DNA from: Anaerolineae bacterium
GTDB taxonomy: Bacteria > Chloroflexota > Anaerolineae > Aggregatilineales > Ch27
Assembly: GCA_013178165.1 (NCBI GenBank)
Contig: JABLXG010000022.1
Location: 13,923-77,922, forward strand
DNA length: 64,000 bases
Direction: 5' to 3'
The translations under genes were made by a program, and so were the position numbers. Every line of letters begins with the position of its first letter. The stretch's first letter is position 1. This document shows positions 22,396-36,627 of this stretch, piece by piece. Under the pieces are notes generated by a model. That model was not told the origin of the DNA. It worked only from the letters and a program-made list of their open reading frames with translations, and did no database searches.

Positions 22396-23016
22396 GTGGG
22401 ATTGTCAGGCTCGCGGAACGGTTCGTTTTGGGAACGCTATCGTGGTCTGCTCACTGTGCTGCTGATCCTGGCGATTGTCAGCGGCGTCGCAGTCTTTCTG
22501 TTCAGACGTCCTGAGCCAGTAGCGATCACGATTATCCCGCCGGAGCCAACGGTTACCCCGTTTCCTTCGCCTACGCCGGGGCCAATCACGGTATATGTCA
22601 CCGGGGCGGTGGCCCGTCCCCAGATCATGGTCAGCCTGCCATATGGCAGCCGGGCGATCGATGCGATCGAAGCGGCGGGCGGTTTCACCGCTGAAGCGGA
22701 TCGCGTGCGAGTAAACCAGGCCCAATTGCTGCGCGATGGCGACCAGGTGCATGTGTTTGCCGTACAGGAGACGATCGCTGCCCCTGATACGATTCTGGCT
22801 ACGCCAGGCGATAGTGGTATCGTCTATGTGAATTCTGCCAGTCAGGCTGAACTGGAGAGTCTGCCACGAGTCGGGCCGGAACTCGCCCGGCGAATCATTG
22901 CCTACCGCGAGGAGCACGGGCCATTCACAACCCTGGACGATCTGCTGGCGGTCAGCGGAATCGGGCCTTCCTTGCTGGAGGCTATTACCCCACTTATCTC
23001 GCTGGATGTGCACTAG
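22396..23016 (+). CDS. comEA: ComEA family DNA-binding protein (TM + SLBB + helix-hairpin-helix)
   Basis: ITVYVTGAVARP, DAIEAAGG, VNQAQLLRDGDQVHV, VNSASQAELESLPRVGPELARRIIAYREEHGPF. GTG at 22396 follows GGAGG. Confidence 0.9.
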   Translation: MGLSGSRNGSFWERYRGLLTVLLILAIVSGVAVFLFRRPEPVAITIIPPEPTVTPFPSPTPGPITVYVTGAVARPQIMVSLPYGSRAIDAIEAAGGFTAEADRVRVNQAQLLRDGDQVHVFAVQETIAAPDTILATPGDSGIVYVNSASQAELESLPRVGPELARRIIAYREEHGPFTTLDDLLAVSGIGPSLLEAITPLISLDVH

Positions 23017-24149
23017 CCGATGCGCTGGCCGGTCGCCTGATCGAATAGATGCACTTGGTCGGGCGGGATCGAGAGCCGGATCTGCTGACCGCGGGTGACA
23101 GGATGTTCCAACGGTGCCCGGATGGTGACCGCGTGCGGCCCAAGCTGGACATGGATTAGCTGGACGCGGTCGCTGTAGAGCGGTTCAACCAGCGTCACCG
23201 TGGCCGGGATGCCCTCCTGGTCGTCCAGCCGGATGTGTTCCGGGCGAATGCCTAGCACGATGCGCATGCCGCTGGCAAAATCGCGGCGGATCGGCCCCCA
23301 GTTGAACGCTTTGCCAATCCACATCCCATCTTCCGCATAGCCATCGAACAGATTCATTGGCGGTTTGCCCAGGAACCCGGCTACAAACACGTTTCTTGGC
23401 GTTTCGTACAGGTGAGCAAATGTGCCGATCTGCATGAGCTGACCCCGGTTCAGCACGGCGATGCGATCACAAAGGGCGATGGCTTCAGTCTGGTCGTGGG
23501 TGACATAGATGCTGGTGACCTGGTAGCGTTGCAGCAGGCGCTTCAGTTCAACCCTGGCGCTGGTGCGTAGCTTGGCGTCGAGGTTGGAGAACGGCTCATC
23601 AAAGAGGAACAGGCGCGGGTCGCGGGCCAAGCAGCGAGCGATGGCGATCCGCTGGCGTTCTCCACCGGAAAGAGTCGGTGGTTTGCGGCTGAGGAGGGGC
23701 TTAAGGTCAATCCGCATCAGTTCAGAAATCTCAAGCACACGGGCTGGAATTTCCGCTTCGCGTTTGTGCAGGCGCAGGAAGAAGCCAATGTTGTCGATAC
23801 TCGGCAGGTGGGGGTACAGCGCGTAGTTCTGGAAGACCATCCCGATCCCCCGTTTGGTCATTGGGATATGCTGCAGGTCTTCGTTATCGTAGAGCACCTG
23901 GCCGGATGTAGGCAGTTCCAGGCCGGCGGCGATGCGCAGCAGGGTGGTTTTGCCACAGCCTGATGGCCCCAGAACGCCCAGCGTTTCTCCGGGGCGTACC
24001 GTGAGGGTGACATCATCCAGGGCATAGATGGCCTCGTCCTGAGGCGGCGGGGAATCATCGGCGCTGGCCGCTGCCCCCTGGCTGTGCATGGCCTTACCCT
24101 GATTGCCGTAAATCTTGGTGATATGTTTCAGCGTCACGGTGGTCGACAT
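23013..24149 (-). CDS. Sugar ABC transporter ATP-binding protein (MalK/UgpC-like)
   Basis: Walker A GPSGCGKT, LSGGERQR signature, FLFDEP, YVTHDQ, C-terminal TOBE domain. Confidence 0.95.
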   Translation of the reverse strand: MSTTVTLKHITKIYGNQGKAMHSQGAAASADDSPPPQDEAIYALDDVTLTVRPGETLGVLGPSGCGKTTLLRIAAGLELPTSGQVLYDNEDLQHIPMTKRGIGMVFQNYALYPHLPSIDNIGFFLRLHKREAEIPARVLEISELMRIDLKPLLSRKPPTLSGGERQRIAIARCLARDPRLFLFDEPFSNLDAKLRTSARVELKRLLQRYQVTSIYVTHDQTEAIALCDRIAVLNRGQLMQIGTFAHLYETPRNVFVAGFLGKPPMNLFDGYAEDGMWIGKAFNWGPIRRDFASGMRIVLGIRPEHIRLDDQEGIPATVTLVEPLYSDRVQLIHVQLGPHAVTIRAPLEHPVTRGQQIRLSIPPDQVHLFDQATGQRIG

Positions 24150-24307
24150 GACAGGCGATTAGCCTCCGGCGGTACTCATTACCCCTTCATGTACCATTTT
24201 AAGGGGATGATGGCCCGACGGCTACCCTTGTGTTTTGTGCAGGTTCGCTCTACCATCGTTAACTTATGATCGGGTTCTATCCAGATACAGAAGGCAGGAC
24301 AGGGCGT

Positions 24308-25348
24308 ATGGATCGCATTGACCTGCGCAGCGATACGGTGAGCTGGCCAACGCCAGCGATGCGGCAAGCAATGGCTACCGCCAGGGTCGGCGATGACGTC
24401 TATGGCGAGGACCCTACGGTCAACGAGCTGGAGGCGCTGGCCGCTGAGACGCTGGGGAAAGAGGCTGGCCTGTTTGTGGTGAGCGGGACGATGGCCAATC
24501 TGGTGGCCTTGCTGACCCATTGCGGGCGCGGCGACGAAGCCATCATGGGCGACCAGTGCCACACCTTCCTTTATGAGGTAGGCAGCATCGCGGCTCTGGG
24601 TGGCATCCAGCCGCGCACTATTCCGGTACAGGCTGACGGCACGTTCGATCTCGATGATATCAGGGCGGCGATCCGGGACAGCGAGGACATTCACCAGCCT
24701 GTATCGCGCCTGATCGCCCTGGAGAATGCGCAGTGCGGAGTCGGGGGTATGCCCCTGACGGCAGCCTACACCGCTGAGGTGGGAAAGCTGGCACAAGCCT
24801 ATGGCCTGAAGCTGCATATCGACGGCTCGCGGATTTTCAACGCGGCAGCGGCATTGAACTGTCCGGCGCGTGAACTGGTCGAAGCGGCGGATAGTGTGTC
24901 ATTCTGCCTCTCCAAAGGGCTTTGCGCGCCGGTTGGGGCGATGCTGGTAGGTAGCCGGGAGTTCATCGCCCGCGCCCGCCGGATGCGTAAGGCGCTGGGA
25001 GGTGGGATGCGCCAGGCTGGTGTGCTGGCTGCCGCCGGTCTGGTAGCTATGCGTGAGATGATCGGGCGCATCCATGAAGACCATGCCACTGCCCGGCAAC
25101 TTGCGGAAGGGCTGGCACGCTTGCCGGGAATTGAGATTGATCTGGAGCGCGTACGAATCAACATGGTGATCATGCGCCTTGCTGATAGCGTCCCGTACAC
25201 GGCTGACGAGATCGCTGCGCGTCTGCGCGAGCGCGGAATCCTGGTCGGCGGACGGGGGGAGCGCAGCTTCCGGCTGGTAACGCACTACTGGATCACGCCG
25301 GCAGTGGTGGAGCAGGTGATCGCCGCTTTCGAGGAAATCTTGGTATGA
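24308..25348 (+). CDS. ltaE: Low-specificity L-threonine aldolase
   Basis: IDLRSDTVS, VGDDVYGEDPTV, SGTMAN, LHIDGSRIFNA, FCLSKGLCAPVG, GGGMRQAG. Confidence 0.93.
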   Translation: MDRIDLRSDTVSWPTPAMRQAMATARVGDDVYGEDPTVNELEALAAETLGKEAGLFVVSGTMANLVALLTHCGRGDEAIMGDQCHTFLYEVGSIAALGGIQPRTIPVQADGTFDLDDIRAAIRDSEDIHQPVSRLIALENAQCGVGGMPLTAAYTAEVGKLAQAYGLKLHIDGSRIFNAAAALNCPARELVEAADSVSFCLSKGLCAPVGAMLVGSREFIARARRMRKALGGGMRQAGVLAAAGLVAMREMIGRIHEDHATARQLAEGLARLPGIEIDLERVRINMVIMRLADSVPYTADEIAARLRERGILVGGRGERSFRLVTHYWITPAVVEQVIAAFEEILV

Positions 25349-26181
25349 ACCGTGAGCTGCCGCCCTTACCCGATTTTGAGTCGTTTGAATGGGATGCCGA
25401 AGGCCCGGCTGACCGGGACATCTTCAGCACAGCGGACACCCTGGCCGCGCCTGTGTCCCCCGAACTGATGCAACCGGCCGCCAGCGGCAGGGCCAGCCCG
25501 GCCTCTGCCGGAGCGACTCAGGCTCCCGCCGATACACCGCCGCCAGTTGCGATGAAGCGCGCCAGACGCCGGGAACGCCTGTGGAACGTGGAACCGGTAT
25601 TTTTCTACCTGATCATGGTCGCCCTGAGTGTGGGGCTGACACCGCTGGCTATGAGCCATCCTGTGGGCCGTTATGCACTCCTGTGGACATTGCTGGCTGG
25701 CGGTGTGCTGGCTTCTTATCTCCTTGACGATGGCACGCTCGAGGTACGGCTTCGCCCGCGCGATCTGATGGCCGGGGCAGGGTGGGGCGCTGTCGTTGGG
25801 TTGCCATTGCTGCTGGTAGGGGCTGGACTGCTGGCAGAGATTTCCGAGCGCATCTTTGTGGAGATGCCTGACGGCGCGGTCTTCCTGACCATTGTGTTCG
25901 TGATGGCGACCACCGAATCGGCGTTCTTCAGGGGACTGTTGCAGAGTCGGCAACCGTTGCTCTTCACAGTGCTGCTGGCCAGCGCCTGGTCAATCCTCAT
26001 GTTCTTCCCGACTATGGATGTGATTGGGTATCCGCTGGTGGCGCTGATCGCGGGAACCTTCCTGGTGATGCTCAATGTGCTGTATGGCTACGTCCGGCAG
26101 CGCAACGGCGCCACGGCCGCATGGGTCTGCCAGACCCTGGTTAGTTTGGCCTGGCTATTTGTGCCGCGTCTGCTGGTCTAA
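25345..26181 (+). CDS. Membrane protein, CPBP/Abi intramembrane protease-like
   Basis: Multiple TM segments and TTESAFFRGLLQ (EExxFRG-like, degenerate). Overlaps the ltaE stop (ATGA). Confidence 0.6.
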   Translation: MNRELPPLPDFESFEWDAEGPADRDIFSTADTLAAPVSPELMQPAASGRASPASAGATQAPADTPPPVAMKRARRRERLWNVEPVFFYLIMVALSVGLTPLAMSHPVGRYALLWTLLAGGVLASYLLDDGTLEVRLRPRDLMAGAGWGAVVGLPLLLVGAGLLAEISERIFVEMPDGAVFLTIVFVMATTESAFFRGLLQSRQPLLFTVLLASAWSILMFFPTMDVIGYPLVALIAGTFLVMLNVLYGYVRQRNGATAAWVCQTLVSLAWLFVPRLLV

Positions 26182-26847
26182 GCCAGCGGCAGCATGAGCT
26201 GCTCGGATCGGCTCCGGCAGGCGGTAGCGGGTAGTACAGGCAAGCACGATCTGCACGGCTGAATGCAAGTCGCACAGGTGGCCGGGTGAAACGTAAACCG
26301 GCTTGACCCGTGTTCGTGTCCGCAGGACAGCGCCGATCACTTCTCTCTGCGTGTTCAGTAAAGGCACGAAATCTCCCCGTTTTTGGCCCGGCTCACGATG
26401 AAAGCCCGTCAGACGGGATTTGGCGCAACCGACAGTTGGACGTTCCAGCCAGAGGCCGATATGCGCTGCAATGCCAAGCCGCCGGGGATGCGCCTGGCCC
26501 TGGCCGTCAAAGATCAGGATGTCCGGCGTGACGGTCAGGCGTTCGTAGGCCGCCAGGATCACCTGACCCTCCCGAAAGCTGAGCAAACCGGGAATGTAGG
26601 GGAAAGGAGTTGGAGCCTGAGCCTGGCTGACTTCGAGGATGGTGAGCGCCGGGAAGCGGAGCACCACGATGGCAGCACGGGACACTTCATCCCGGACGCT
26701 CACATCAACACCGGCTACGGTACGGATATCAGCCAGTGCAGGCCCGGCCTGAGTCCGCAGGCGACTGGCGAGCGCTATCTGCAGTGTCACGGCGTCATCA
26801 GGATTCAGATTCCAGGGGTGAAGATTGGGGTTAGCGATTGCTGGCAT
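26155..26847 (-). CDS. nfi: Endonuclease V (deoxyinosine 3' endonuclease)
   Basis: VAGVDVS, FPYIPGLLSFREG, DGQGQAHPRRLGIA, PTVGCAKS, PVYVSPGH, RLPEPIRAAH. Confidence 0.95.
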   Translation of the reverse strand: MPAIANPNLHPWNLNPDDAVTLQIALASRLRTQAGPALADIRTVAGVDVSVRDEVSRAAIVVLRFPALTILEVSQAQAPTPFPYIPGLLSFREGQVILAAYERLTVTPDILIFDGQGQAHPRRLGIAAHIGLWLERPTVGCAKSRLTGFHREPGQKRGDFVPLLNTQREVIGAVLRTRTRVKPVYVSPGHLCDLHSAVQIVLACTTRYRLPEPIRAAHAAAGLDQQTRHK

Positions 26848-27131
26848 CGCCTAGTTCCTTTTGAGTCTGCGTCCGGATGGTCGACAGGATACCGCACCTG
26901 GTAAATCCGTGACAGCGCATGCTGCGGGACAGCCTGGCAGCAGGTAAGCACAGAGGCCAGGGGGCTGGGAGGCCGGGAGACGCCTGATGCAAGGCTGGCG
27001 GTTACAGTAGTGTTGTGGGGGTGGCAGGAGCGCTGCTGGAAGAGGCAGACAGCGGTTGTTTGCTGTGTGCCGGTTTGCGGGCGTGGTGGCGTATAATAGG
27101 GCCATTGCGGACTGCACAAGGCGGCTGAGGG

Positions 27132-27995
27132 ATGCCGGATATCCTGCAGACACTGGTGCCGTATATCGTGGGCGGGATGTTTTTTCTCGCCCTGGTTCTG
27201 TTTCTGGTGGCGCTGGTGTATTTCCGGCGTGGGAAACGCGATCGGTACTGGCGACTTCGCCGTGCCGCCAGTCTTACTGGCTGGCAGTTGTTTCTTATCT
27301 CGCTCACGCTGGCTTTTGTGGCCTCGGCGGTCTGCCTTTTCAGTGGGTTTGCGTCATTGGTGCTGGAAGGCGGTTTGCAGGCGTCACCTGTACCTGTGTC
27401 TGGCTCGCCCACGGTGCTGGTGTCTCCGTTAATAACTGTCTTGCCTACAGCGCAGGCGGCGGCTACCACAGCGATGCCCTCACCATCGCCTACGCCACAA
27501 CCTGCGTCCGCTACACCGTCGGCAACGCCCACCGGAACTGCCAGCGCTACGGCATCGCCCCGCCCAACGCGGCTGGTGGCATCAGTGACGCTTGCGGGGC
27601 CGACCGCGACTCCCACTGCAACGGAGCTTCAGGTGTGGCCGCTTGCCTCCAATGTGACGCCACCGCCTGAGGCTGACCTGACGATTGTCGCTGTGGATAG
27701 GGCTGTGAGCGCCGATCTACAACCGGTCAATCCGGATGCCCTGTTGCAGGCGGGCATCACCCGGCTGTACTTCTGGGTTGCCTATCGCGGGATGGTGGAC
27801 GGTGTGGCCTGGGAACGGCTTCTGCTGCGTGATGGGCGCGTTATTCAGGGCGGGGCTTACCTGTGGAATGGCGGCGCCGAAGGGACTGCGCTTTACTTCT
27901 TTGGCGACGCTGAAGGTTTTACACCGGGCGAATATGAAATCCGGCTGGCATTCTCCGGTGTCACGGTGGAATCGAAAACGCTGCGTATTCAGTGA
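27132..27995 (+). CDS. Hypothetical membrane-anchored protein (2 TM, Pro/Thr linker, C-terminal beta domain)
   Basis: Two N-terminal TM segments, a PT/PS-rich linker and a globular C-terminus. Confidence 0.75.
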   Translation: MPDILQTLVPYIVGGMFFLALVLFLVALVYFRRGKRDRYWRLRRAASLTGWQLFLISLTLAFVASAVCLFSGFASLVLEGGLQASPVPVSGSPTVLVSPLITVLPTAQAAATTAMPSPSPTPQPASATPSATPTGTASATASPRPTRLVASVTLAGPTATPTATELQVWPLASNVTPPPEADLTIVAVDRAVSADLQPVNPDALLQAGITRLYFWVAYRGMVDGVAWERLLLRDGRVIQGGAYLWNGGAEGTALYFFGDAEGFTPGEYEIRLAFSGVTVESKTLRIQ

Positions 27996-28025: not shown

Positions 28026-29786
28026 CTAACGGCTCCGCCGTTTGAAGCCAATAACGCGGTAAACGGTGTGCGGGCCGGGGTCGTCACGGAATGGCCGCTG
28101 TACCGGTTCAGCATCGATCCGGTCACGGACGCGCTGGTAGGTGGCTTCAGAGATGATGATCTCGCTGCGCTCCGCGGCCTCCTGAAGTTGTTTGGCGTGA
28201 GCGACCGGCTGACCAAGGGCGGTGAACTCCTTACGCTCATCGGTCCCCACATTGCCCAGAACGGCCATGCCGGTGTCGATACCGATGCCATACCACAGGC
28301 GGGCATTGGGCGGCATCAGTTCGTGAAGTACTTTGACATCATAGATCATACTCATCGCAGCGCGGATCGCCCGCAGGGCATGATCTTCTTCCTGGGGATT
28401 GAGCTGGGTGTTGTAGAGGCCAACGACGGCATCACCCATGTACTTGTCGATGATGCCCTCGTACAGGTGGATTGCATCGCTGGCGACCTCAAGGTAGCGG
28501 TTGATCACCGTCATCAGCGCCTCTGGCTCAAGCTGCTCGGAGAAGCCGGTAAAGCCGCGCACATCGGCGAAGATGATGCTGATCTCGCGCTCTTCCCCGC
28601 CAAGGGCAAGGGTGTCAATGGCCCGGATGTTCTCAACCATCGCTGGTGGGAGGTACCGCCGCACTTCGGCCAGCGTCGCTTCCCGGCGGCGGATATCGGT
28701 CAGGTCATCGACAAGGATGGTCGCCCCGCTGATACCCTGATCGTGAGTCTTGAGCGGGCTGAGACGCACAGCAAATACGACTTTTCCGCGCCCGACAAGG
28801 ACTGGCTCAAGCTCTGCGGCGTAGTTGAGGCCATCGCTGAGGGCGCGCTGCAGCGCTGCGTAGAACTCCGCACCGAGATCCGGGAGGATGTTGGCGAGGG
28901 GTCTATTCAGGGCCTGCTGGCGTTCCAGGCCAAAAATGCGTTCTGCTGCCTGGTTCCAGATGATGACTCTTGTGTCACAATCGGTGGTGATCACCGCGCT
29001 GGCGAGCGAGGCGAATACACTCTCCAGCAGTTCCTTGTTCTCGGTGACTTCTTCCAAAGTGGTTCTGACATGTTCGAACAGGCGGGCGTTCTCGATGGCC
29101 ACCGCGGCTTGATCGGCAAAGGCGGTCAGGAGCGCCAGCTCGCTCTCACCAAACAGACCGGAACGAACGCGGTTATCGGCGTATACCACCCCGATCACAT
29201 CCTCTTTAATCTTTAGCGGGACGCACAGGATGCTGCGCAGGGAATAGGACACCACGCTTTCCTGCTCGGCGAAGCGCGGATCGCTCTGGGCATTGGTGGT
29301 CACTACCGGCGTGCCGGTCTGGGCGACGCTGTTGACAACGCTACGGCTTACCGTAAAAGAACTGCGTTCGATTGTCTCCCGATCAAGGTTACGGGCCACC
29401 CGTACCATCATGCTGCCGGTGTGCTCATCGCGCAGTACGATGTAACCGCGTTCGGCGTCAGTCAGGCGAATCACGGTGTCCATCACCCGGTTGAGGACTT
29501 CGTCCAGACCCAGCGAGCTATTGATCAGGGCGGAAGTTTCAGCGAGGGCGCGCAACCGGGTCAGTTCGATCTGTTGTGCTCGCAGATGGGCGGCCAGCTT
29601 TTCAATGTCCTGTTCGGCGGCGGCGATGTCTTGTAGGGCACCCGGCGGGAGACTCATGCCGCGCTGTTGCAGCAGCGCACGCTGGGCACGCAGAAGGCCA
29701 TCCAGCTCGTGGATCATGCCTTTAATCCGTTCGGCGGCGACGATGCCAGGACTGGCGAAGGACTGAGTCCCGAAGAGCGTTGACAT
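28026..29786 (-). CDS. GAF-PAS-class III nucleotide cyclase (metal-binding, C1-like subunit)
   Basis: FADVRGFT and DKYMGD are intact, but the transition-state motif is GQPVAHAKQL (no Asn or Arg). GAF: GTPVVTTNAQSDPRF...RSILCVPL. ATG at 29786. Confidence 0.9.
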   Translation of the reverse strand: MSTLFGTQSFASPGIVAAERIKGMIHELDGLLRAQRALLQQRGMSLPPGALQDIAAAEQDIEKLAAHLRAQQIELTRLRALAETSALINSSLGLDEVLNRVMDTVIRLTDAERGYIVLRDEHTGSMMVRVARNLDRETIERSSFTVSRSVVNSVAQTGTPVVTTNAQSDPRFAEQESVVSYSLRSILCVPLKIKEDVIGVVYADNRVRSGLFGESELALLTAFADQAAVAIENARLFEHVRTTLEEVTENKELLESVFASLASAVITTDCDTRVIIWNQAAERIFGLERQQALNRPLANILPDLGAEFYAALQRALSDGLNYAAELEPVLVGRGKVVFAVRLSPLKTHDQGISGATILVDDLTDIRRREATLAEVRRYLPPAMVENIRAIDTLALGGEEREISIIFADVRGFTGFSEQLEPEALMTVINRYLEVASDAIHLYEGIIDKYMGDAVVGLYNTQLNPQEEDHALRAIRAAMSMIYDVKVLHELMPPNARLWYGIGIDTGMAVLGNVGTDERKEFTALGQPVAHAKQLQEAAERSEIIISEATYQRVRDRIDAEPVQRPFRDDPGPHTVYRVIGFKRRSR

Positions 29787-29793
29787 GCCGCTA

Positions 29794-31554
29794 TCACCCC
29801 TCCCACCCGAACTGGTAGATACGAGCGGGTTGCTGGCGTCCGCGGATTTCGATCTCGCCGCGATCGGTGGTCTGCACATGTTCAGCGATTTGCGGCAAAT
29901 GCGCCGCGCAGGCTTTGTAGACCTCCTGGCTGGCCAGTATTTCGTTGTCATCCGCCAGGTCCAGAAGGCGATGTGCCAGGTTCACAGTATCGCCGATGGC
30001 AGTGAATTCACGCCGGACTTTGCTGCCGACATTGCCCATGGTGGCGATGCCGCTGTGGATGCCGATGGCGTAACACGGCTGAGCCGAAGGTGCGCTGGCA
30101 GTGTGCAACCCGGCAAAGGCAGCGGCAATGTCCAGCGCGGCGCGCACCGCATCCCAGGCGTGGGTGGCGCTGGGGTTGAGTTGCGTGTTGAACAGCGCCA
30201 TGATTTCCGTGCCCATGAACTTGTCGATCACACCGCCGAAGCGATGAATCGGCTCGCAGCAAAGAGCCACATAGCGGTTGAGTTCAGCCAGTTGCTGTTG
30301 AGGGGATAGATCGGCCAGCAGTGTGCTGGCGAGGCGGATATCTACATAGAGCACGGTGATGTCCCGCCGTACGCCGCCCAGTCCCAGCTGGGCAATGCTC
30401 TGAATGTTGTCGACCATGGCTGGCGGCAGGTAACGCCGGATCACATTTAGCTGGGCTTCGCGCTGGCGGGCTTCTGTCAGATCATCCATGACGATGGCGA
30501 CGCCCTCGATCGATTGCCGGGCGTCTCGCAGAGGACTGAGCCTGACGCTCAGTATGCGCGTGCCGCGCGCCTCCACTTCAGCCTGCAACTCTACGCTCAT
30601 CCGCCGGTTTTCCAGCCGGGTTGCTTCCAGGGCGCGGCTCAGGCTATCGGCCACCATTGGCAGTCGGGCAGGCAGGGCACCGCCGATGACCTGCGCAGGT
30701 GTCAGGTGCAGGATATCACACGCCGCATCGTTAAGTAGCGTGATCTGGTCGCCAGCGTCGGTCACGATGACGCCGCTGGGGATGGAGGCGAACACATCAT
30801 CGAGCAATGCCTTGATCTCGCTGATCTCGGCCAGGGCGGCACGGATACGCTCAAACAGGCGGGCATTCTCGATGGCGATGGCAGCCTGATTGGCGAACGC
30901 ATTCAGCATCGCCAGTTCACTGTCGCCAAACAAACCTGCCCGGATGCGGTTATCAGCGTAGATCACGCCAATGACGTGGCCTTTGCTCTTGAGGGGGACG
31001 CAGAGGATGCTGCGCAGGGCAAAAGAGACGATGCTCTCCTGAGCGGCAAAGCGGGGATCGTCCTGGGCGTTGGTGGTGACAACTGGCTCGCCGGTGTCGG
31101 CGACGCGCTTGATGACACTGCGGCTGACGGTAAAGGCGTCCTGAGCGATAGTTTCCCGGTCGAGGTTACGGGCGACGCGATACTCCATCTCCTGAGTTTG
31201 TTCGTTGCGCAGCATCAGGTAACCCCGCTCGGCACCGGTCAGCCGTAGCACGGTGTCCATGGCTTGGCTCAGCACTTCATCGAGATCGAGTGTGCTGTTG
31301 ATCAGGGCGGCGGTCTGGGTCAGGGCACGGAGCTGGCGGAGGGCCTCCTCCTCCTCTTTCAGGCCATTGATCAGGTCCTGCATGGCGATCTGAGCATCTT
31401 CCAGCAGGGTGAATACAGCAGAGGGCAGGGTCATGCCCCGCTGGCGCAGAATCTCGCGCTGGGAGAGCAACACGCCCTGCAAATTGTGGAGGTTGCGGCC
31501 CAGAACCTGGGCTTCCTGGCGGATCGTATCGGTCGGCCTGAACTGTGTGGTCAT
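29794..31554 (-). CDS. GAF-PAS-class III nucleotide cyclase (substrate/transition-state, C2-like subunit)
   Basis: FTAIGDTVNLAHRL and the DKF Lys are intact, but YVDIRLAS (P-loop GFT lost) and KFMGT (second metal Asp lost) are degenerate. It is a paralog of the downstream gene. Confidence 0.9.
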   Translation of the reverse strand: MTTQFRPTDTIRQEAQVLGRNLHNLQGVLLSQREILRQRGMTLPSAVFTLLEDAQIAMQDLINGLKEEEEALRQLRALTQTAALINSTLDLDEVLSQAMDTVLRLTGAERGYLMLRNEQTQEMEYRVARNLDRETIAQDAFTVSRSVIKRVADTGEPVVTTNAQDDPRFAAQESIVSFALRSILCVPLKSKGHVIGVIYADNRIRAGLFGDSELAMLNAFANQAAIAIENARLFERIRAALAEISEIKALLDDVFASIPSGVIVTDAGDQITLLNDAACDILHLTPAQVIGGALPARLPMVADSLSRALEATRLENRRMSVELQAEVEARGTRILSVRLSPLRDARQSIEGVAIVMDDLTEARQREAQLNVIRRYLPPAMVDNIQSIAQLGLGGVRRDITVLYVDIRLASTLLADLSPQQQLAELNRYVALCCEPIHRFGGVIDKFMGTEIMALFNTQLNPSATHAWDAVRAALDIAAAFAGLHTASAPSAQPCYAIGIHSGIATMGNVGSKVRREFTAIGDTVNLAHRLLDLADDNEILASQEVYKACAAHLPQIAEHVQTTDRGEIEIRGRQQPARIYQFGWEG

Positions 31555-32084
31555 CTTACCCCCGACCTGCAGCAGGTCTCCGGGCATGGTGGCTTGGTTG
31601 ACGTCGGGCATGCGGCGCATTGCTGTCTGTTGCGGACATGTATCACTTGCCGGGCGGGTAGTTGACCGGGCAACGGTCCGCTGTTCACACAGGTCGGGTA
31701 CCCTGTGTGCCAGGCGGCCAGCGTGAACGCCGCAGCAGATAACTGTTCGCTGGCTCAGGAGGCATTATACCCGGCGGATAAGGCCGTGCAACAGCGACCT
31801 TATGTCGGGGGCCGGAATTGATGGGTAGAATCACGTTTGGATAGGGCTGGACAACCAGGGCAGGATGCCGCCTGGCAACAGCTTTCCGCAACCTGTGGGG
31901 GGATAGCTGCATCAAAGGAAGGTGTCACCGGCCGGGAATCCGTCGCCGGGCTTCAGTGGTATATGCTCGCGTCCCGGACACGAGCGAGTCTCTATGTTCC
32001 GGGCTGACAAGGGACGTTCCGGGTGAATCAGGCGCTTGTACGACGGGTAGGCTTCAACGCCTGCTGGAGGGAGAACGGTAACAG

Positions 32085-33011
32085 GTGCGTAAGGAAAAAG
32101 TGATCATCATCGGTTCTGGCCCTGCCGGGCTGACGGCGGCGCTCTATGCCGCACGAGCAAATCTCAATCCCCTGGTGCTGGCTGGAGACCTTCTGGGGGG
32201 CCAGATTTCGCTAACCAGCGAGGTGGAGAACTATCCCGGTTTTCCGCAGGGGGTGAGCGGGGCAGAACTGGTTGGGCTGATGAAAACGCAGGCTGAGCGC
32301 TTTGGCGCACGCCTTGAGTATGATTCGGCGGTGGCAGTCGATTTCAGCAAGGGATCGCCCTTCTACCTGAAGACCACCATGGCCGAGTATGAAGCGGAAG
32401 CGGTCATTGTGACGGTGGGCGCCTCTCCGCGCAAGTTAGGTGTGCCCGGCGAGGCAGAGTTCACCGGGCGCGGTGTCAGCTACTGCGCAACCTGCGACGG
32501 TTTCTTTTTCAGGGGGAAGGATGTCGTTGTAGTTGGCGGCGGCGATAGCGCGCTGGAGGAGGGCCTGTTTCTGACCAAGTTTGCCAGCAAGGTGACGATC
32601 ATCCATCGGCGTGACCAGCTGCGGGCCGGGGCAACCCTGCAGGCGCGTGCGGCCACAAATGCGAAGATCGGCTTCATCTGGGATACGGTGGTGACAGCTA
32701 TTGAGGGCGATGGTACCGTGCAGCGGGTGAGACTGCATAACCGCAAGACCGGCGAAGACAGCGTCCTGCCAACGGATGGCGTGTTTATCTTTATCGGCCA
32801 CGATCCGAATAACTCGATTTTCAGGGATCAGCTGGCAATGGATCAGGACGGCTATGTCATCACCGACAAGCAGATGCGCACCAGTGTAGAGGGGGTTTTC
32901 GCGGCGGGCGAGATTCAGGATCGACTTTACCGCCAGATTGCGACATCGGTAGGGCAGGGTGCAGCGGCGGCGATGATGTGTGAGCGCTGGCTGGCCGAGC
33001 GCGGAAGTTGA
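32085..33011 (+). CDS. trxB: Thioredoxin-disulfide reductase
   Basis: [41 protein letters not shown]. Confidence 0.96.
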
Positions 33012-33040
33012 TCCGCCCTGGCGAATACGGCGGTGATCAG

Positions 33041-33068
33041 AGGGGCTGCTACAGGGCAGCCCTTTTTT
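33041..33068 (+). terminator. Rho-independent terminator after trxB
   Basis: AGGGGCTGC-TACAGG-GCAGCCCCT followed by a T-tract. Confidence 0.8.
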
Positions 33069-33139
33069 GTGCTTAATGCGTTTTGTCGCACGATGGCGCA
33101 TTGCCGGGTACAATAGCGCCGTTTTGAGGAGGGGCGTCT

Positions 33140-33802
33140 ATGAACCTGATGGAATATGTGCGGATCATCACCCGCCGGCTGTGGATTATCGTGTTGTTGA
33201 TGGCGCTGACCATGGCCGCGGCTTTTGTCCTGAGTCGTATCCAGACGCCAATTTACCGCGCAACGCAGAAGATTCTGATGCAACCCTCGCGAATCGACTT
33301 TGGTCTGGCGGAGGCGACGACGCGGTTGATGCGATCGTACGTGGTTTTTCTGGATAGCGACGATCGCGCACGGGAGGTTATTGACGCGCTGAAGCTTGAT
33401 ATGACGCCGGGAGAACTGCGTCAACACGTGACGGTTGACACCGATGAAAGCCGCCTGTTGATCACGATTGACGTTGACCTGCCTGATGGCAATCTGGCCA
33501 ACGACGTAGCCCGGCAATGGGGCAACCTGTTCATTGAGTGGCGTAACGAGGAGAATCAGCGCACCCGCTATGAGGATCGTATCCGGGCATCCCTGGTGGA
33601 CTACCCCACGTACAGCCAGATTGTGCCACGAACAGCAGTCAACGTGGCGGCGGGAGCGGTGCTGGGGCTGATTCTGGGTGGCATGATTGTGTTTGTGCTG
33701 GAATACTTTGAATCCAATATCATCCGCCAGCGGGATGATGTTCTCCGCTCGCTGGATGTTCCGGTGCTGGGCACGATCCCGGCGGAAGAAACGCGGTCTT
33801 AG
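33140..33802 (+). CDS. Wzz/CpsC (YveK-like) polysaccharide co-polymerase
   Basis: Two TM segments, TPIYRAT, C-terminal LDVPVLGTIP activator segment. Confidence 0.88.
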   Translation: MNLMEYVRIITRRLWIIVLLMALTMAAAFVLSRIQTPIYRATQKILMQPSRIDFGLAEATTRLMRSYVVFLDSDDRAREVIDALKLDMTPGELRQHVTVDTDESRLLITIDVDLPDGNLANDVARQWGNLFIEWRNEENQRTRYEDRIRASLVDYPTYSQIVPRTAVNVAAGAVLGLILGGMIVFVLEYFESNIIRQRDDVLRSLDVPVLGTIPAEETRS

Positions 33803-33829
33803 GGGGGCAAAAGGAGACAGGCAAGACCA

Positions 33830-34492
33830 ATGGCTACCGTAGGCTTGATCATGCTCGCCGAGCCGCAGTCAGCTGCAGCTGAAGCGTACCGTGCGCTGCG
33901 GACGAACCTGCTGTTTTCTACCGTGGATCGCCCGGCCAATACCCTGGTGATCACTGGCCCGACGCCTGAGGTGGGCAAGAGTACTGTCGCCGCCAACCTG
34001 GCGATTACCCTGGCACAGGGTGGGCATGAAACCATTCTGGTGGACTGTGACCTTCGCCAGCCCCGGCAGCACGAGTTGTGGGGCGTGGATAACCAGCGCG
34101 GTCTGACAACGATGATGCTTGATCCGGCAGCTCTGGCGCAGCCGCCCCTGCAATCCGTCAACGTGGAACACCTGAGCATATTGCCCGGTGGCCCCTTGCC
34201 CCCTAATCCCGCCGATCTGCTGGGTAGCCGGCGGATGGATGAGGTGATTGGCGTGTTGAAGGCGCGGGCGGAGTTTGTCCTGTTTGATGCGCCGCCGGTG
34301 CTGGCAGTGGCCGATGCCGCGATTCTGGGTTCCAAAGTGGATGGTGTGCTGTTGGTCGTGCGGGCGGGGCAAACCCGGCGCGATCAGGCCATCCGGGCAA
34401 AGGAGTTGTTGGACCAGGTGCACATTCGAATCGTCGGCAGCGTGCTCACCAACGCTCCACGTGACGCGGCAGTGGCCGGTTACTATGCCTAG
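33830..34492 (+). CDS. CpsD/CapB family tyrosine-protein kinase
   Basis: EAYRALRTNL, Walker A PEVGKST, LVDCDLRQP, VLFDAPP, C-terminal YY. Confidence 0.92.
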   Translation: MATVGLIMLAEPQSAAAEAYRALRTNLLFSTVDRPANTLVITGPTPEVGKSTVAANLAITLAQGGHETILVDCDLRQPRQHELWGVDNQRGLTTMMLDPAALAQPPLQSVNVEHLSILPGGPLPPNPADLLGSRRMDEVIGVLKARAEFVLFDAPPVLAVADAAILGSKVDGVLLVVRAGQTRRDQAIRAKELLDQVHIRIVGSVLTNAPRDAAVAGYYA

Positions 34493-34495
34493 AGG

Positions 34496-35578
34496 GTGAG
34501 TGAGCGCATGAAAGGTCTGATTCTGAGCGGCGGCAAGGGCACCCGGCTCTATCCGCTAACCTATACACGCGCCAAACAGTTGATCCCGGTCGCTAACAAG
34601 CCCATTCTCTTCCGGGTCATTGAGGCGATCCGTGAGGCAGGAATCACGGAGATCGGGATCGTCATCGGCGACACCGGGCCGGAAATCCGTGAAGCCGTCG
34701 GTGATGGCAGCCGCTGGGGAGCAACAATCACGTACATCCAGCAGGAGCAACCGCTTGGGTTGGCCCATGCCGTCAAAATCTCCCGGGACTTTCTGGGTGA
34801 CGAGCGCTTTGTGATGTTCCTGGGCGACAACGTGATTCAGGGCGGGATACATCGCCTGATCACTGACTTTGCCCGGCATCCGGAATGGAACAGCCAGATC
34901 GTCCTGACCAGGGTGGATCATCCTGAGCAGTACGGCGTGGCCAAGCTGACGGCGGATGGCCGGGTTGAGCGCTTGATTGAAAAGCCCAAGACTCCGCCTT
35001 CCGACCTGGCGCTGGTCGGCATCTACATGTTTGACTCCCACATTTTCGAGGCAACCGAGCAGATCAGCCCATCCTGGCGCGGCGAACTGGAGATCACCGA
35101 TGCGATCCAGTGGCTGGTCGATCACGGGCACACGGTCTACCCATACGTGCATCAGGGTTGGTGGATTGATACGGGACGCCCGGATGACATGCTGGAAGCG
35201 AATAGCAAGGTGCTGGAGGAACTGACGCCAGAAATTTTGGGATTCGTCGATGAGCAATCTGATGTTGACTCGCGGGTGACAGTTCAGGCGGGGGCGCAGA
35301 TCATCAACAGCACCATTCGCGGCCCGGCGATCATCGGCGAAAACACGCGGATTGTGAACAGCTATGTCGGTCCCTTTACCAGCATCTACCATAATGTGGT
35401 CATTGAGAACTGCGAGATCGACCGTTCGATCATTCTGGAACACAGTGTGATGCGCGATATTGATGTGCGTGTCCAGGATAGCCTGATCGGGCGTCATGCC
35501 CTGGTGCAGCGCAGCGACTACCGCCCCAGGGCGCTTAAGCTGAACCTGGGCGATTACAGCAAGATCGGCCTGGTGTAG
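34496..35578 (+). CDS. rfbA: Glucose-1-phosphate thymidylyltransferase (long form)
   Basis: GLILSGGKGTRLYPLT, KQLIPVANKP, GLAHAV, RGELEITDAIQ, C-terminal left-handed beta-helix region. The start may be ATG 34508. Confidence 0.93.
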   Translation: MSERMKGLILSGGKGTRLYPLTYTRAKQLIPVANKPILFRVIEAIREAGITEIGIVIGDTGPEIREAVGDGSRWGATITYIQQEQPLGLAHAVKISRDFLGDERFVMFLGDNVIQGGIHRLITDFARHPEWNSQIVLTRVDHPEQYGVAKLTADGRVERLIEKPKTPPSDLALVGIYMFDSHIFEATEQISPSWRGELEITDAIQWLVDHGHTVYPYVHQGWWIDTGRPDDMLEANSKVLEELTPEILGFVDEQSDVDSRVTVQAGAQIINSTIRGPAIIGENTRIVNSYVGPFTSIYHNVVIENCEIDRSIILEHSVMRDIDVRVQDSLIGRHALVQRSDYRPRALKLNLGDYSKIGLV

Positions 35579-35613
35579 CGCCGGTAGCTTCAGGAGTGAT
35601 AGGGTACGTAACC

Positions 35614-36627
35614 ATGAAGAACATCCTCGTAACCGGCGGGGCGGGGTTCATCGGCAGCGCCTTTGTGCGCTACATGATCGACACCTATCCTGACTACAAT
35701 GTCGTTGTTCTGGATAAACTGACCTACGCCGGCAACCTGGATAACCTGTTGCCAGTCCGGGACAATCCGCGTTACCGGTTTGAACGGGCAGACATTGCCG
35801 ACCGCGCTGCCGTTGAACGCATCGTTGAGCAGCACGGGATCGATACGATTGTCAATTTCGCGGCGGAGACGCATGTCGACCGCAGCATTTTGCAGCCCGA
35901 TGCTTTTATCTACACTGATGTGGTCGGTGTGTATGTGCTGCTGGAGATGGTGCGCCAGAAGGGAGTACAGCGCCTGCTGCATGTCAGTACTGATGAGGTC
36001 TACGGCGATATCCCGCAAGGATATTCGGTCGAGACTGATCCCTTTGCGCCAAACAGCCCCTATGCCGCTTCCAAGGCCGGGGCTGAACTGATGATCCGGG
36101 CTTACTTCCAGACTTACGGCCTCAACGTTGTGGTGACACGCGGGAGTAATACCTTTGGGCCATACCAGTACCCGGAAAAACTGATGTCGTTATTCATCAC
36201 GGAAGCCATTGACGACCGGCCGCTGCCGCTCTACGGCGATGGCCGCCAGGTGCGAGACTGGCTCTACGTGCTGGATCATGTCACCGGCATCGACACGGTG
36301 CTGCATAAGGGCATAGCAGGCGAAGCCTACAATATCGCCGGCGAGAATGAACGGCCCAACATCGATGTAGTCCGGGCGCTGCTGAAGGAACTGGGTAAGC
36401 CGGAAAGCCTGATCCGCCATGTTGCCGACCGCCCCGGTCATGATCGCCGCTATGCGATGAACTGCGATAAGCTGCGCGCGCTGGGCTGGCGGCGTCAGCA
36501 CAGCTTCAAAGAGGCACTGCGGGAAACCGTAGCTTGGTATGTCCATAACGAATGGTGGTGGCGCAAGATCAAAACCGGCGAATATCTGGAATACTATAAA
36601 GCGCAGTACGCCAGCCGCCTGGACTGA
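35614..36627 (+). CDS. rfbB: dTDP-glucose 4,6-dehydratase
   Basis: LVTGGAGFIGS, DKLTYAGN, AAETHVDRS, STDEVYG, YAASK, DRPGHDRRY. Confidence 0.96.
   Translation: MKNILVTGGAGFIGSAFVRYMIDTYPDYNVVVLDKLTYAGNLDNLLPVRDNPRYRFERADIADRAAVERIVEQHGIDTIVNFAAETHVDRSILQPDAFIYTDVVGVYVLLEMVRQKGVQRLLHVSTDEVYGDIPQGYSVETDPFAPNSPYAASKAGAELMIRAYFQTYGLNVVVTRGSNTFGPYQYPEKLMSLFITEAIDDRPLPLYGDGRQVRDWLYVLDHVTGIDTVLHKGIAGEAYNIAGENERPNIDVVRALLKELGKPESLIRHVADRPGHDRRYAMNCDKLRALGWRRQHSFKEALRETVAWYVHNEWWWRKIKTGEYLEYYKAQYASRLD

Follow-up and report, generated by a model that had tools for sequence, protein, structure and literature searches.

Two adjacent class IIIb cyclase genes with complementary half-sites: a predicted heterodimeric adenylyl cyclase in an order of Anaerolineae

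Class III nucleotide cyclases build their active sites at a dimer interface, as seen in the structures of the mammalian VC1/IIC2 complex, with the metal-binding Asp residues and the P-loop supplied by one protomer and a Lys, an Asp or Thr, an Asn, an Arg and a further Lys by the other. Two papers describe the class III cyclases of bacteria as homodimeric and treat the design in which two domains complement each other as eukaryotic (PMC4821796; PMC9552081). Here we describe two neighboring genes, A and B, in a 64,000-nucleotide stretch of DNA from an Anaerolineae bacterium (the window; GCA_013178165.1, contig JABLXG010000022.1, positions 13,923 to 77,922), which encode cyclases with reciprocal active-site losses. 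From the way the catalytic residues are divided between them, we consider it probable that their products function only together, each as one subunit of a heterodimeric class IIIb adenylyl cyclase. An earlier note on this DNA, made from the letters alone, knew of no characterized two-gene bacterial example; likewise, the full-text literature that we searched describes no heterodimeric class III cyclase that occurs naturally in bacteria as the product of two genes, although most subscription reviews lie outside that scope and an earlier passing prediction is possible.

Of the described systems, the mammalian adenylyl cyclase C1-C2 core (VC1/IIC2, PDB 1AZS and 1CJK) offers a parallel, in that complementary catalytic residues are split across two cyclase domains. 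The domain with the metal Asp pair and P-loop corresponds to B, that giving Lys, Asp/Thr, Asn, Arg and Lys corresponds to A, and one active site is accompanied by one degenerate site in which the same positions have decayed. However, C1 and C2 belong to a single class IIIa membrane protein, whereas A and B are class IIIb, soluble and separately encoded, and regulation by forskolin or G proteins is not expected for A/B. The α1 and β1 chains of soluble guanylyl cyclase (sGC; 3UVJ, 6JT0) are, like A and B, products of separate paralogous genes with a sensor-PAS-helix-cyclase layout, and are active only as a heterodimer, which has just one active site, the state that we propose for A/B. However, sGC is eukaryotic, makes cyclic GMP (Glu/Cys base pair), uses H-NOX sensors, and its genes do not form an operon. 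ADCY10 (soluble adenylyl cyclase, sAC) and bacterial sAC-like tandem cyclases share with A/B class IIIb membership, the C1/C2 division of labor and a degenerate site, but have both domains in one chain and no GAF-PAS sensor. The degenerate site of sAC binds bicarbonate.

Closest in sequence and fold, and sharing the Lys/Thr base pair, are the homodimeric class IIIb enzymes CyaB (3R5G) and CyaC (1WC0) and the single-copy cyclases of Anaerolineae described below, all of which, unlike A and B, have two symmetric sites, with every catalytic residue present on a single chain. Cyanobacterial cyclases of the CyaB1/CyaB2 GAF-GAF-PAS type have tandem GAF domains, the second of which binds cyclic AMP (cAMP; NKFDE motif), whereas A and B each have only one GAF stretch according to Pfam. 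An engineered counterpart exists in Rv1625c, whose D300A and R376A variants are each inactive alone and complement one another when combined (PMC4821796, citing Guo et al. 2001). A has the D300-type and B the R376-type defect, although the Rv1625c variants were made in the laboratory from a homodimeric enzyme of class IIIa and A/B is natural, ancient and order-wide. By analogy only, heterodimeric ABC exporters (TM287/288, PatAB; PMC7756269) are also adjacent bacterial paralogs with one of two interface sites decayed, in an unrelated fold with unrelated chemistry.

Catalytic residues divided between A and B

Residue equivalence was set by alignment to the solved class IIIb cyclases CyaB of P. 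aeruginosa (3r5g), Cya2 of Synechocystis (2w01) and CyaC of Spirulina (1wc0), and equivalence to mammalian (VC1/IIC2, sAC) residues follows via the standard class III motifs (Table 1). The losses that the earlier note had read in A are confirmed for the second metal Asp and the P-loop, and the Lys, Thr, Asn, Arg and IRGR are in place, with the refinement that the first metal Asp is kept. For B, the reading of two intact Asp residues, an intact P-loop and a missing Asn and Arg holds, but the K/R-G motif that had been thought lost is only half so.

Table 1. Catalytic positions in A and B, and their state across 83 A-clade and 73 B-clade sequences
Position	A	B	A clade	B clade
First metal Asp	YVD405IRLAS, Asp retained	FAD408VRGFT, intact	Asp 40/83, Glu 40/83, other 3/83	Asp 73/73
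P-loop Gly	GFT lost, LAS in place	GFT intact	7/83	72/73 (GFT 72/73)
Base Lys	K445FMGT449	K448YMGD452	83/83	73/73
Second metal Asp	replaced by Thr449	Asp452, intact	0/83	73/73
Base Thr or Ser	FT518AIGDTVN525LAHR529L	FT522ALGQPVA529HAKQ533L	83/83	72/73
Transition-state Asn	Asn525	Ala529	83/83	26/73
Transition-state Arg	Arg529	Gln533	83/83	1/73
γ-phosphate K/R-G	IR571G572R, retained	FRDD (FR-DD), Arg retained, Gly lost	kept in nearly all	

The Lys/Thr base-selecting pair of class IIIb is present in both proteins (K445 and T518 in A; K448 and T522 in B), and the subclass also fits their best PDB relatives, all class IIIb; identity to the CyaB and CyaC enzymes is 27-32%. Among weaker PDB sequence matches, mammalian VC1 and the sGC α chains are found by B and not by A, and sGC β1 by A and not by B. 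AlphaFold2 models of the two proteins (mean predicted local distance difference test scores 78.8 and 79.7) place both catalytic domains on CyaB, CyaC and Cya2 with template modeling (TM) scores of 0.8-0.87, as expected of a class III fold; on CyaB 3r5g, A scores 0.82-0.83 with a root-mean-square deviation of 2.6 Å and B 0.86-0.87. The models thus predict intact class III folds for both catalytic domains, and neither resembles a decayed pseudogene.

The earlier note's call for a search of genomes for gene pairs with the same reciprocal pattern was answered by scanning a single genome for each species, which gave 443 species with a relative. The 79 loci kept all come from Chloroflexota metagenome-assembled genomes labeled Anaerolineae, Aggregatilineales, Ardenticatenia, Thermoflexus or Phototrophicaceae. 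The residue split is not due to chance, because it is fixed across the 83 A-type and 73 B-type sequences, and complementary loss is seen in 72/73 B-type genes with their A-type partners. Database relatives repeat the pattern: among the best 120 for A, the second Asp is always replaced, by Thr, Asn or Ser, and all keep the Thr, Asn, Arg and K/R-G, and among the best 120 for B, FADVRGFT and KYMGD are present in all and the Arg is missing in all but two. Each subunit appears to hold, under strict selection, residues that would be of no use without the other half.

Gene linkage is equally strict. A precedes B on the same strand in 71/71 pairs, with a gap of -8 to +9 nt in 46 of the 71 (frequently through an ATGA or TGATG overlap) and of at most 35 nt in 67. 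A B-type gene follows the A-type gene on the same strand at every locus with sufficient downstream DNA, and the ten loci without B all end at a contig boundary. At one locus (L037; contig DAOTZZ010000345.1, 4001-5692) the A-type gene, which lies upstream of an intact B, is interrupted by one in-frame stop although it otherwise aligns over its full length; the stop could be a sequencing error or mark a pseudogene. Another genome of the same order (G251) has one TAG within its match.

These patterns bear on a reading in which neither A, nor B, nor their complex is a cyclase, and the two are degenerate cyclase-homology sensors or scaffolds, e.g. nucleotide-binding regulators. Such a reading draws on the finding that neither polypeptide by itself holds the full catalytic set expected of an active homodimer. 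However, the orthologs have degenerated in a strictly complementary and not a random way, the retained halves show no variation in at least 70 species, the halves of A and B add up to exactly one canonical site, and unpaired orthologs are always complete (see below). We regard a non-catalytic role for the pair as very improbable.

Unpaired orthologs and the origin of the pair

The family is present in 185/201 genomes and 84/88 genera of the window's order, and relatives were found in 54/151 genomes of an even sample of the class Anaerolineae. Copy number was read from the retrieved loci, per-genome match counts being unreliable since only 6-8 candidates were scored. Two adjacent matches occur in most genomes of every family of the order except f57, which has one match per genome, and one family represented by a single genome, with one match. 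Ten f57 loci were read, all single and complete, and outside the order 30/30 retrieved loci are single genes with FADIRGFT, KFMGD, YTAIGDxVNLAKRL and VKGR. All 40 unpaired orthologs (10 of them f57 genes, the other 30 from families elsewhere in the class) are therefore catalytically complete, and the single-copy orthologs have the whole GAF-PAS-cyclase architecture of A and B.

A 203-sequence FastTree phylogeny and a 57-sequence IQ-TREE phylogeny (LG+C20+F+G4) agree. In the latter, the A clade (support 100/99), the B clade (100/99) and the A+B clade (100/100) are recovered; the A+B clade sits inside a grade of complete single-copy genes, with the f57 singles as its weakly supported sister (87/53). 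The nesting of the sister clades A and B among complete singles points to an origin in which a homodimeric GAF-PAS cyclase was duplicated once, within one Anaerolineae order, and the two copies then underwent reciprocal loss. Since A and B are closest to each other and nested among Anaerolineae singles, their split arose independently of the eukaryotic C1/C2 and sGC α/β splits, with which it shows no common descent. Branching within the A clade matches that within the B clade, which indicates that the two genes have been inherited together since that single duplication.

This co-inheritance also bears on the exclusivity of the pairing. The genome encodes two further cyclase-domain proteins, and A or B might also pair with other cyclases of the genome, e.g. 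a REC-GAF-cyclase on contig C34, giving a mixed pool. The strict A-B linkage and the mirrored subtrees, however, indicate co-evolution as a unit, and the other cyclases of the genome do not share the N-terminal hairpin and PAS architecture; we see only a slim chance that A:B is not exclusive. The REC-GAF-cyclase (L080; G000 contig C34, 377223-377744) has a complete catalytic set. Elsewhere in the same genome (L083; contig C33, 23353-23583), a C2-like cyclase domain without metal Asp, and with Asn, Arg and Lys kept, is joined to an AAA_16 STAND ATPase in an open frame of 1342 residues, of which 931 were scanned.

The proposed heterodimer and its sensor half

The complementary half-sites, and with them the A+B heterodimer that the earlier note had put forward, are strongly supported by the reciprocal pattern, the constant gene order, the 40 complete singles and the sister-clade topology, from which we infer dimerization of A with B, activity and product. 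Given the tight gene spacing, equimolar synthesis is predicted: A and B would be co-transcribed and translationally coupled, in amounts of about 1:1. They would pair via their helical hairpins, GAF-PAS modules and signaling helices, with the catalytic domains arranged head to tail, and the A:B interface would form one complete ATP site. To this site B would contribute Asp408, Asp452 and the phosphate-binding GFT loop, and A would contribute Lys445 and Thr518 (adenine), Asn525 and Arg529 (transition state), and Arg571-Gly572 (γ-phosphate). The symmetry-related second site would be dead, combining the degenerate metal half of A with the Lys and Thr of B, and lacking both Asn and Arg. Neither homodimer would be appreciably active, because A:A would have no metal site and B:B no transition-state Arg. 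The Lys and Thr at the base-selecting positions predict ATP as substrate and cAMP as product; a Lys with Asp or Thr marks adenylyl cyclases and specifies adenine (PMC6005667).

Two observations weigh against an obligate heterodimer. A B:B dimer would keep both Asp residues, the Lys and the Thr, in 26/73 cases the Asn, and next to the lost Arg a basic residue (Lys or Arg) that is invariant in the B clade just before that position, so residual B:B activity is possible. Moreover, one gene deep in the B clade (L003:3640-5466, contig DAOUEM010000026.1; P0142) carries the full set FADVRGFT, KYMGD, PVNYAKRL and LRGE, beside an A partner that is still degenerate. Its Asn and Arg represent either a reversal or a late retention, and show that degeneration is not absolutely irreversible.

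The same residues would favor a reading in which B is the real enzyme, acting as a weak B:B homodimer, and A is a dead regulatory paralog that titrates or modulates it, as an inhibiting or activating pseudoenzyme, and does not complete its active site: the Asp pair, P-loop, Lys and Thr are retained in B (73/73), and its cyclase domain is more conserved than that of A (mean identity 61% versus 51%). A mere modulator would, however, have no need of the Lys, Asn and Arg that A keeps in 83/83 sequences, nor of the K/R-G motif that it nearly always keeps, and the Arg-to-Ala variant of Rv1625c is inactive alone (PMC4821796). We consider a B homodimer with a dead partner improbable, and retain the A:B heterodimer as the preferred assignment.

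Mean identities per domain, in which A was compared with its own partner B and with A of other species, locate the asymmetry between the subunits. The GAF domains are 57% identical between A and its own B and 59% between A and A, and the PAS domains 44% and 45%, respectively; the corresponding values are 57% and 71% for the PAS-cyclase linker helix and 41% and 51% for the catalytic domain. The linker is strongly paralog-specific (71% A versus A, 41% A versus singles, 33% B versus singles). Paralog-specific divergence is thus restricted to the linker helix and the catalytic domain. The earlier note had envisaged integration of signals from two diverged GAF-PAS modules; since A-versus-B identity in GAF and PAS equals A-versus-A identity, A/B-specific divergence of these domains was rejected. 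Gene conversion of the sensor domains was likewise rejected, own partners being not unusually similar: for a given A, the GAF and PAS of its own partner are not those of the closest B. The heterodimer would probably combine a nearly symmetric sensor half with an asymmetric catalytic half, an asymmetry that may extend into the signaling helix, and integration of two different signals seems unlikely.

The Lys and Thr of B are invariant at the would-be pseudo-site, where the basic residue ahead of the lost Arg is also constant, so that a ligand could conceivably bind there. That this degenerate site forms a forskolin-like allosteric pocket, as the earlier note suggested, is speculation. A fuller proposal, of an order-wide natural two-gene C1/C2-like cyclase, independent of eukaryotes, whose decayed site may have taken on an allosteric role by binding an anion or nucleotide, in the manner of sAC or forskolin-sensitive cyclases, strikes us as doubtful when taken as a whole.

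Layout of the locus and implications

Coordinates are collected in Table 2. The description of A and B as adjacent, co-oriented paralogs 7 nt apart with a common helical-GAF-PAS-cyclase layout is borne out by their open reading frames (ORFs), by Pfam, which assigns to each protein a single copy of the GAF, PAS and Guanylate_cyc domains (with PF00211 exceeding its cut-off in both), and by the AlphaFold2 models, in which both proteins begin with a helical hairpin, followed by GAF, a long helix, PAS, a short helix and the cyclase domain. A and B are 49% identical across 527 residues (BLASTP). The ORF of A is open up to 31620, with alternative starts possible at 31587, 31611 or 31620, and GGGGG lies 5-6 nt upstream of its ATG (31554). 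The junction layout suggests a translationally coupled operon.

Table 2. Features of the cyclase locus, in window coordinates
Feature	Coordinates	Strand	Description
Gene A	29794-31554	minus	586 residues; upstream, 'C2-like' subunit
GAF of A	30871..31287	minus	residues 90-228; PF01590, E 7.6e-22
PAS of A	30463..30792	minus	residues 255-364; PF08448 and PF00989
PAS-cyclase linker of A	30364-30462		~30 residues, RRYLPPAMV...
Class IIIb cyclase domain of A	29797..30363	minus	residues 398-586; PF00211, E 2.9e-13
A/B junction	29787..29804	minus	TGA stop 29794-29796 and 7-nt spacer 29787-29793 ahead of ATG of B
Shine-Dalgarno-like GGGAGGGG	29797-29804		within 3' end of A, 10 nt ahead of ATG of B
Gene B	28026-29786	minus	586 residues; downstream, 'C1-like' subunit
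GAF of B	29094..29507	minus	residues 94-231; Pfam; 73% identical to GAF of A
PAS of B	28689..29012	minus	residues 259-366; PF08448
PAS-cyclase linker of B	28596-28688		~30 residues, RRYLPPAMV...
Class IIIb cyclase domain of B	28029..28589	minus	residues 400-586; PF00211, E 1e-13

A scan for promoters and terminators gave nothing exceeding shuffled expectation. Long antisense ORFs at 28068-29216, 29785-30309 and 30488-30889 (all plus strand) were rejected as genes; the first recurs in 57/79 related loci only as a GC-rich shadow of the conserved gene. The regions flanking the pair (23013-27995 and 32085-36627) appear to encode, judged by translation only, an ABC ATPase, a threonine-aldolase-like enzyme, an endonuclease V-like protein, a thioredoxin reductase, a polysaccharide chain-length regulator with tyrosine kinase, and dTDP-sugar synthesis genes. 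When the flanks at the 79 loci were clustered, none of these window neighbors proved to be kept beside the pair in other genomes and no third conserved gene emerged, the largest flanking cluster covering 13/79 loci.

What would be new here is the C1/C2 principle realized as two bacterial genes, with an independent origin and living pre-duplication relatives. A widespread natural bacterial heterodimer, if confirmed, would qualify the homodimer rule for bacterial class III cyclases, and the one-site design would have evolved at least twice through the same residue losses. The pair would provide a tractable soluble model with built-in controls, namely the complete single-copy orthologs in sister families and one B-type protein with the full set, and experimental material is available since a cultured relative, Aggregatilinea lenta, has an A-type gene (P0080). 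Because the single-copy orthologs keep the pre-duplication state, experiments could retrace how cyclase asymmetry evolved, and such work could address why a halved number of active sites is recurrently favored, e.g. for tighter allosteric control.

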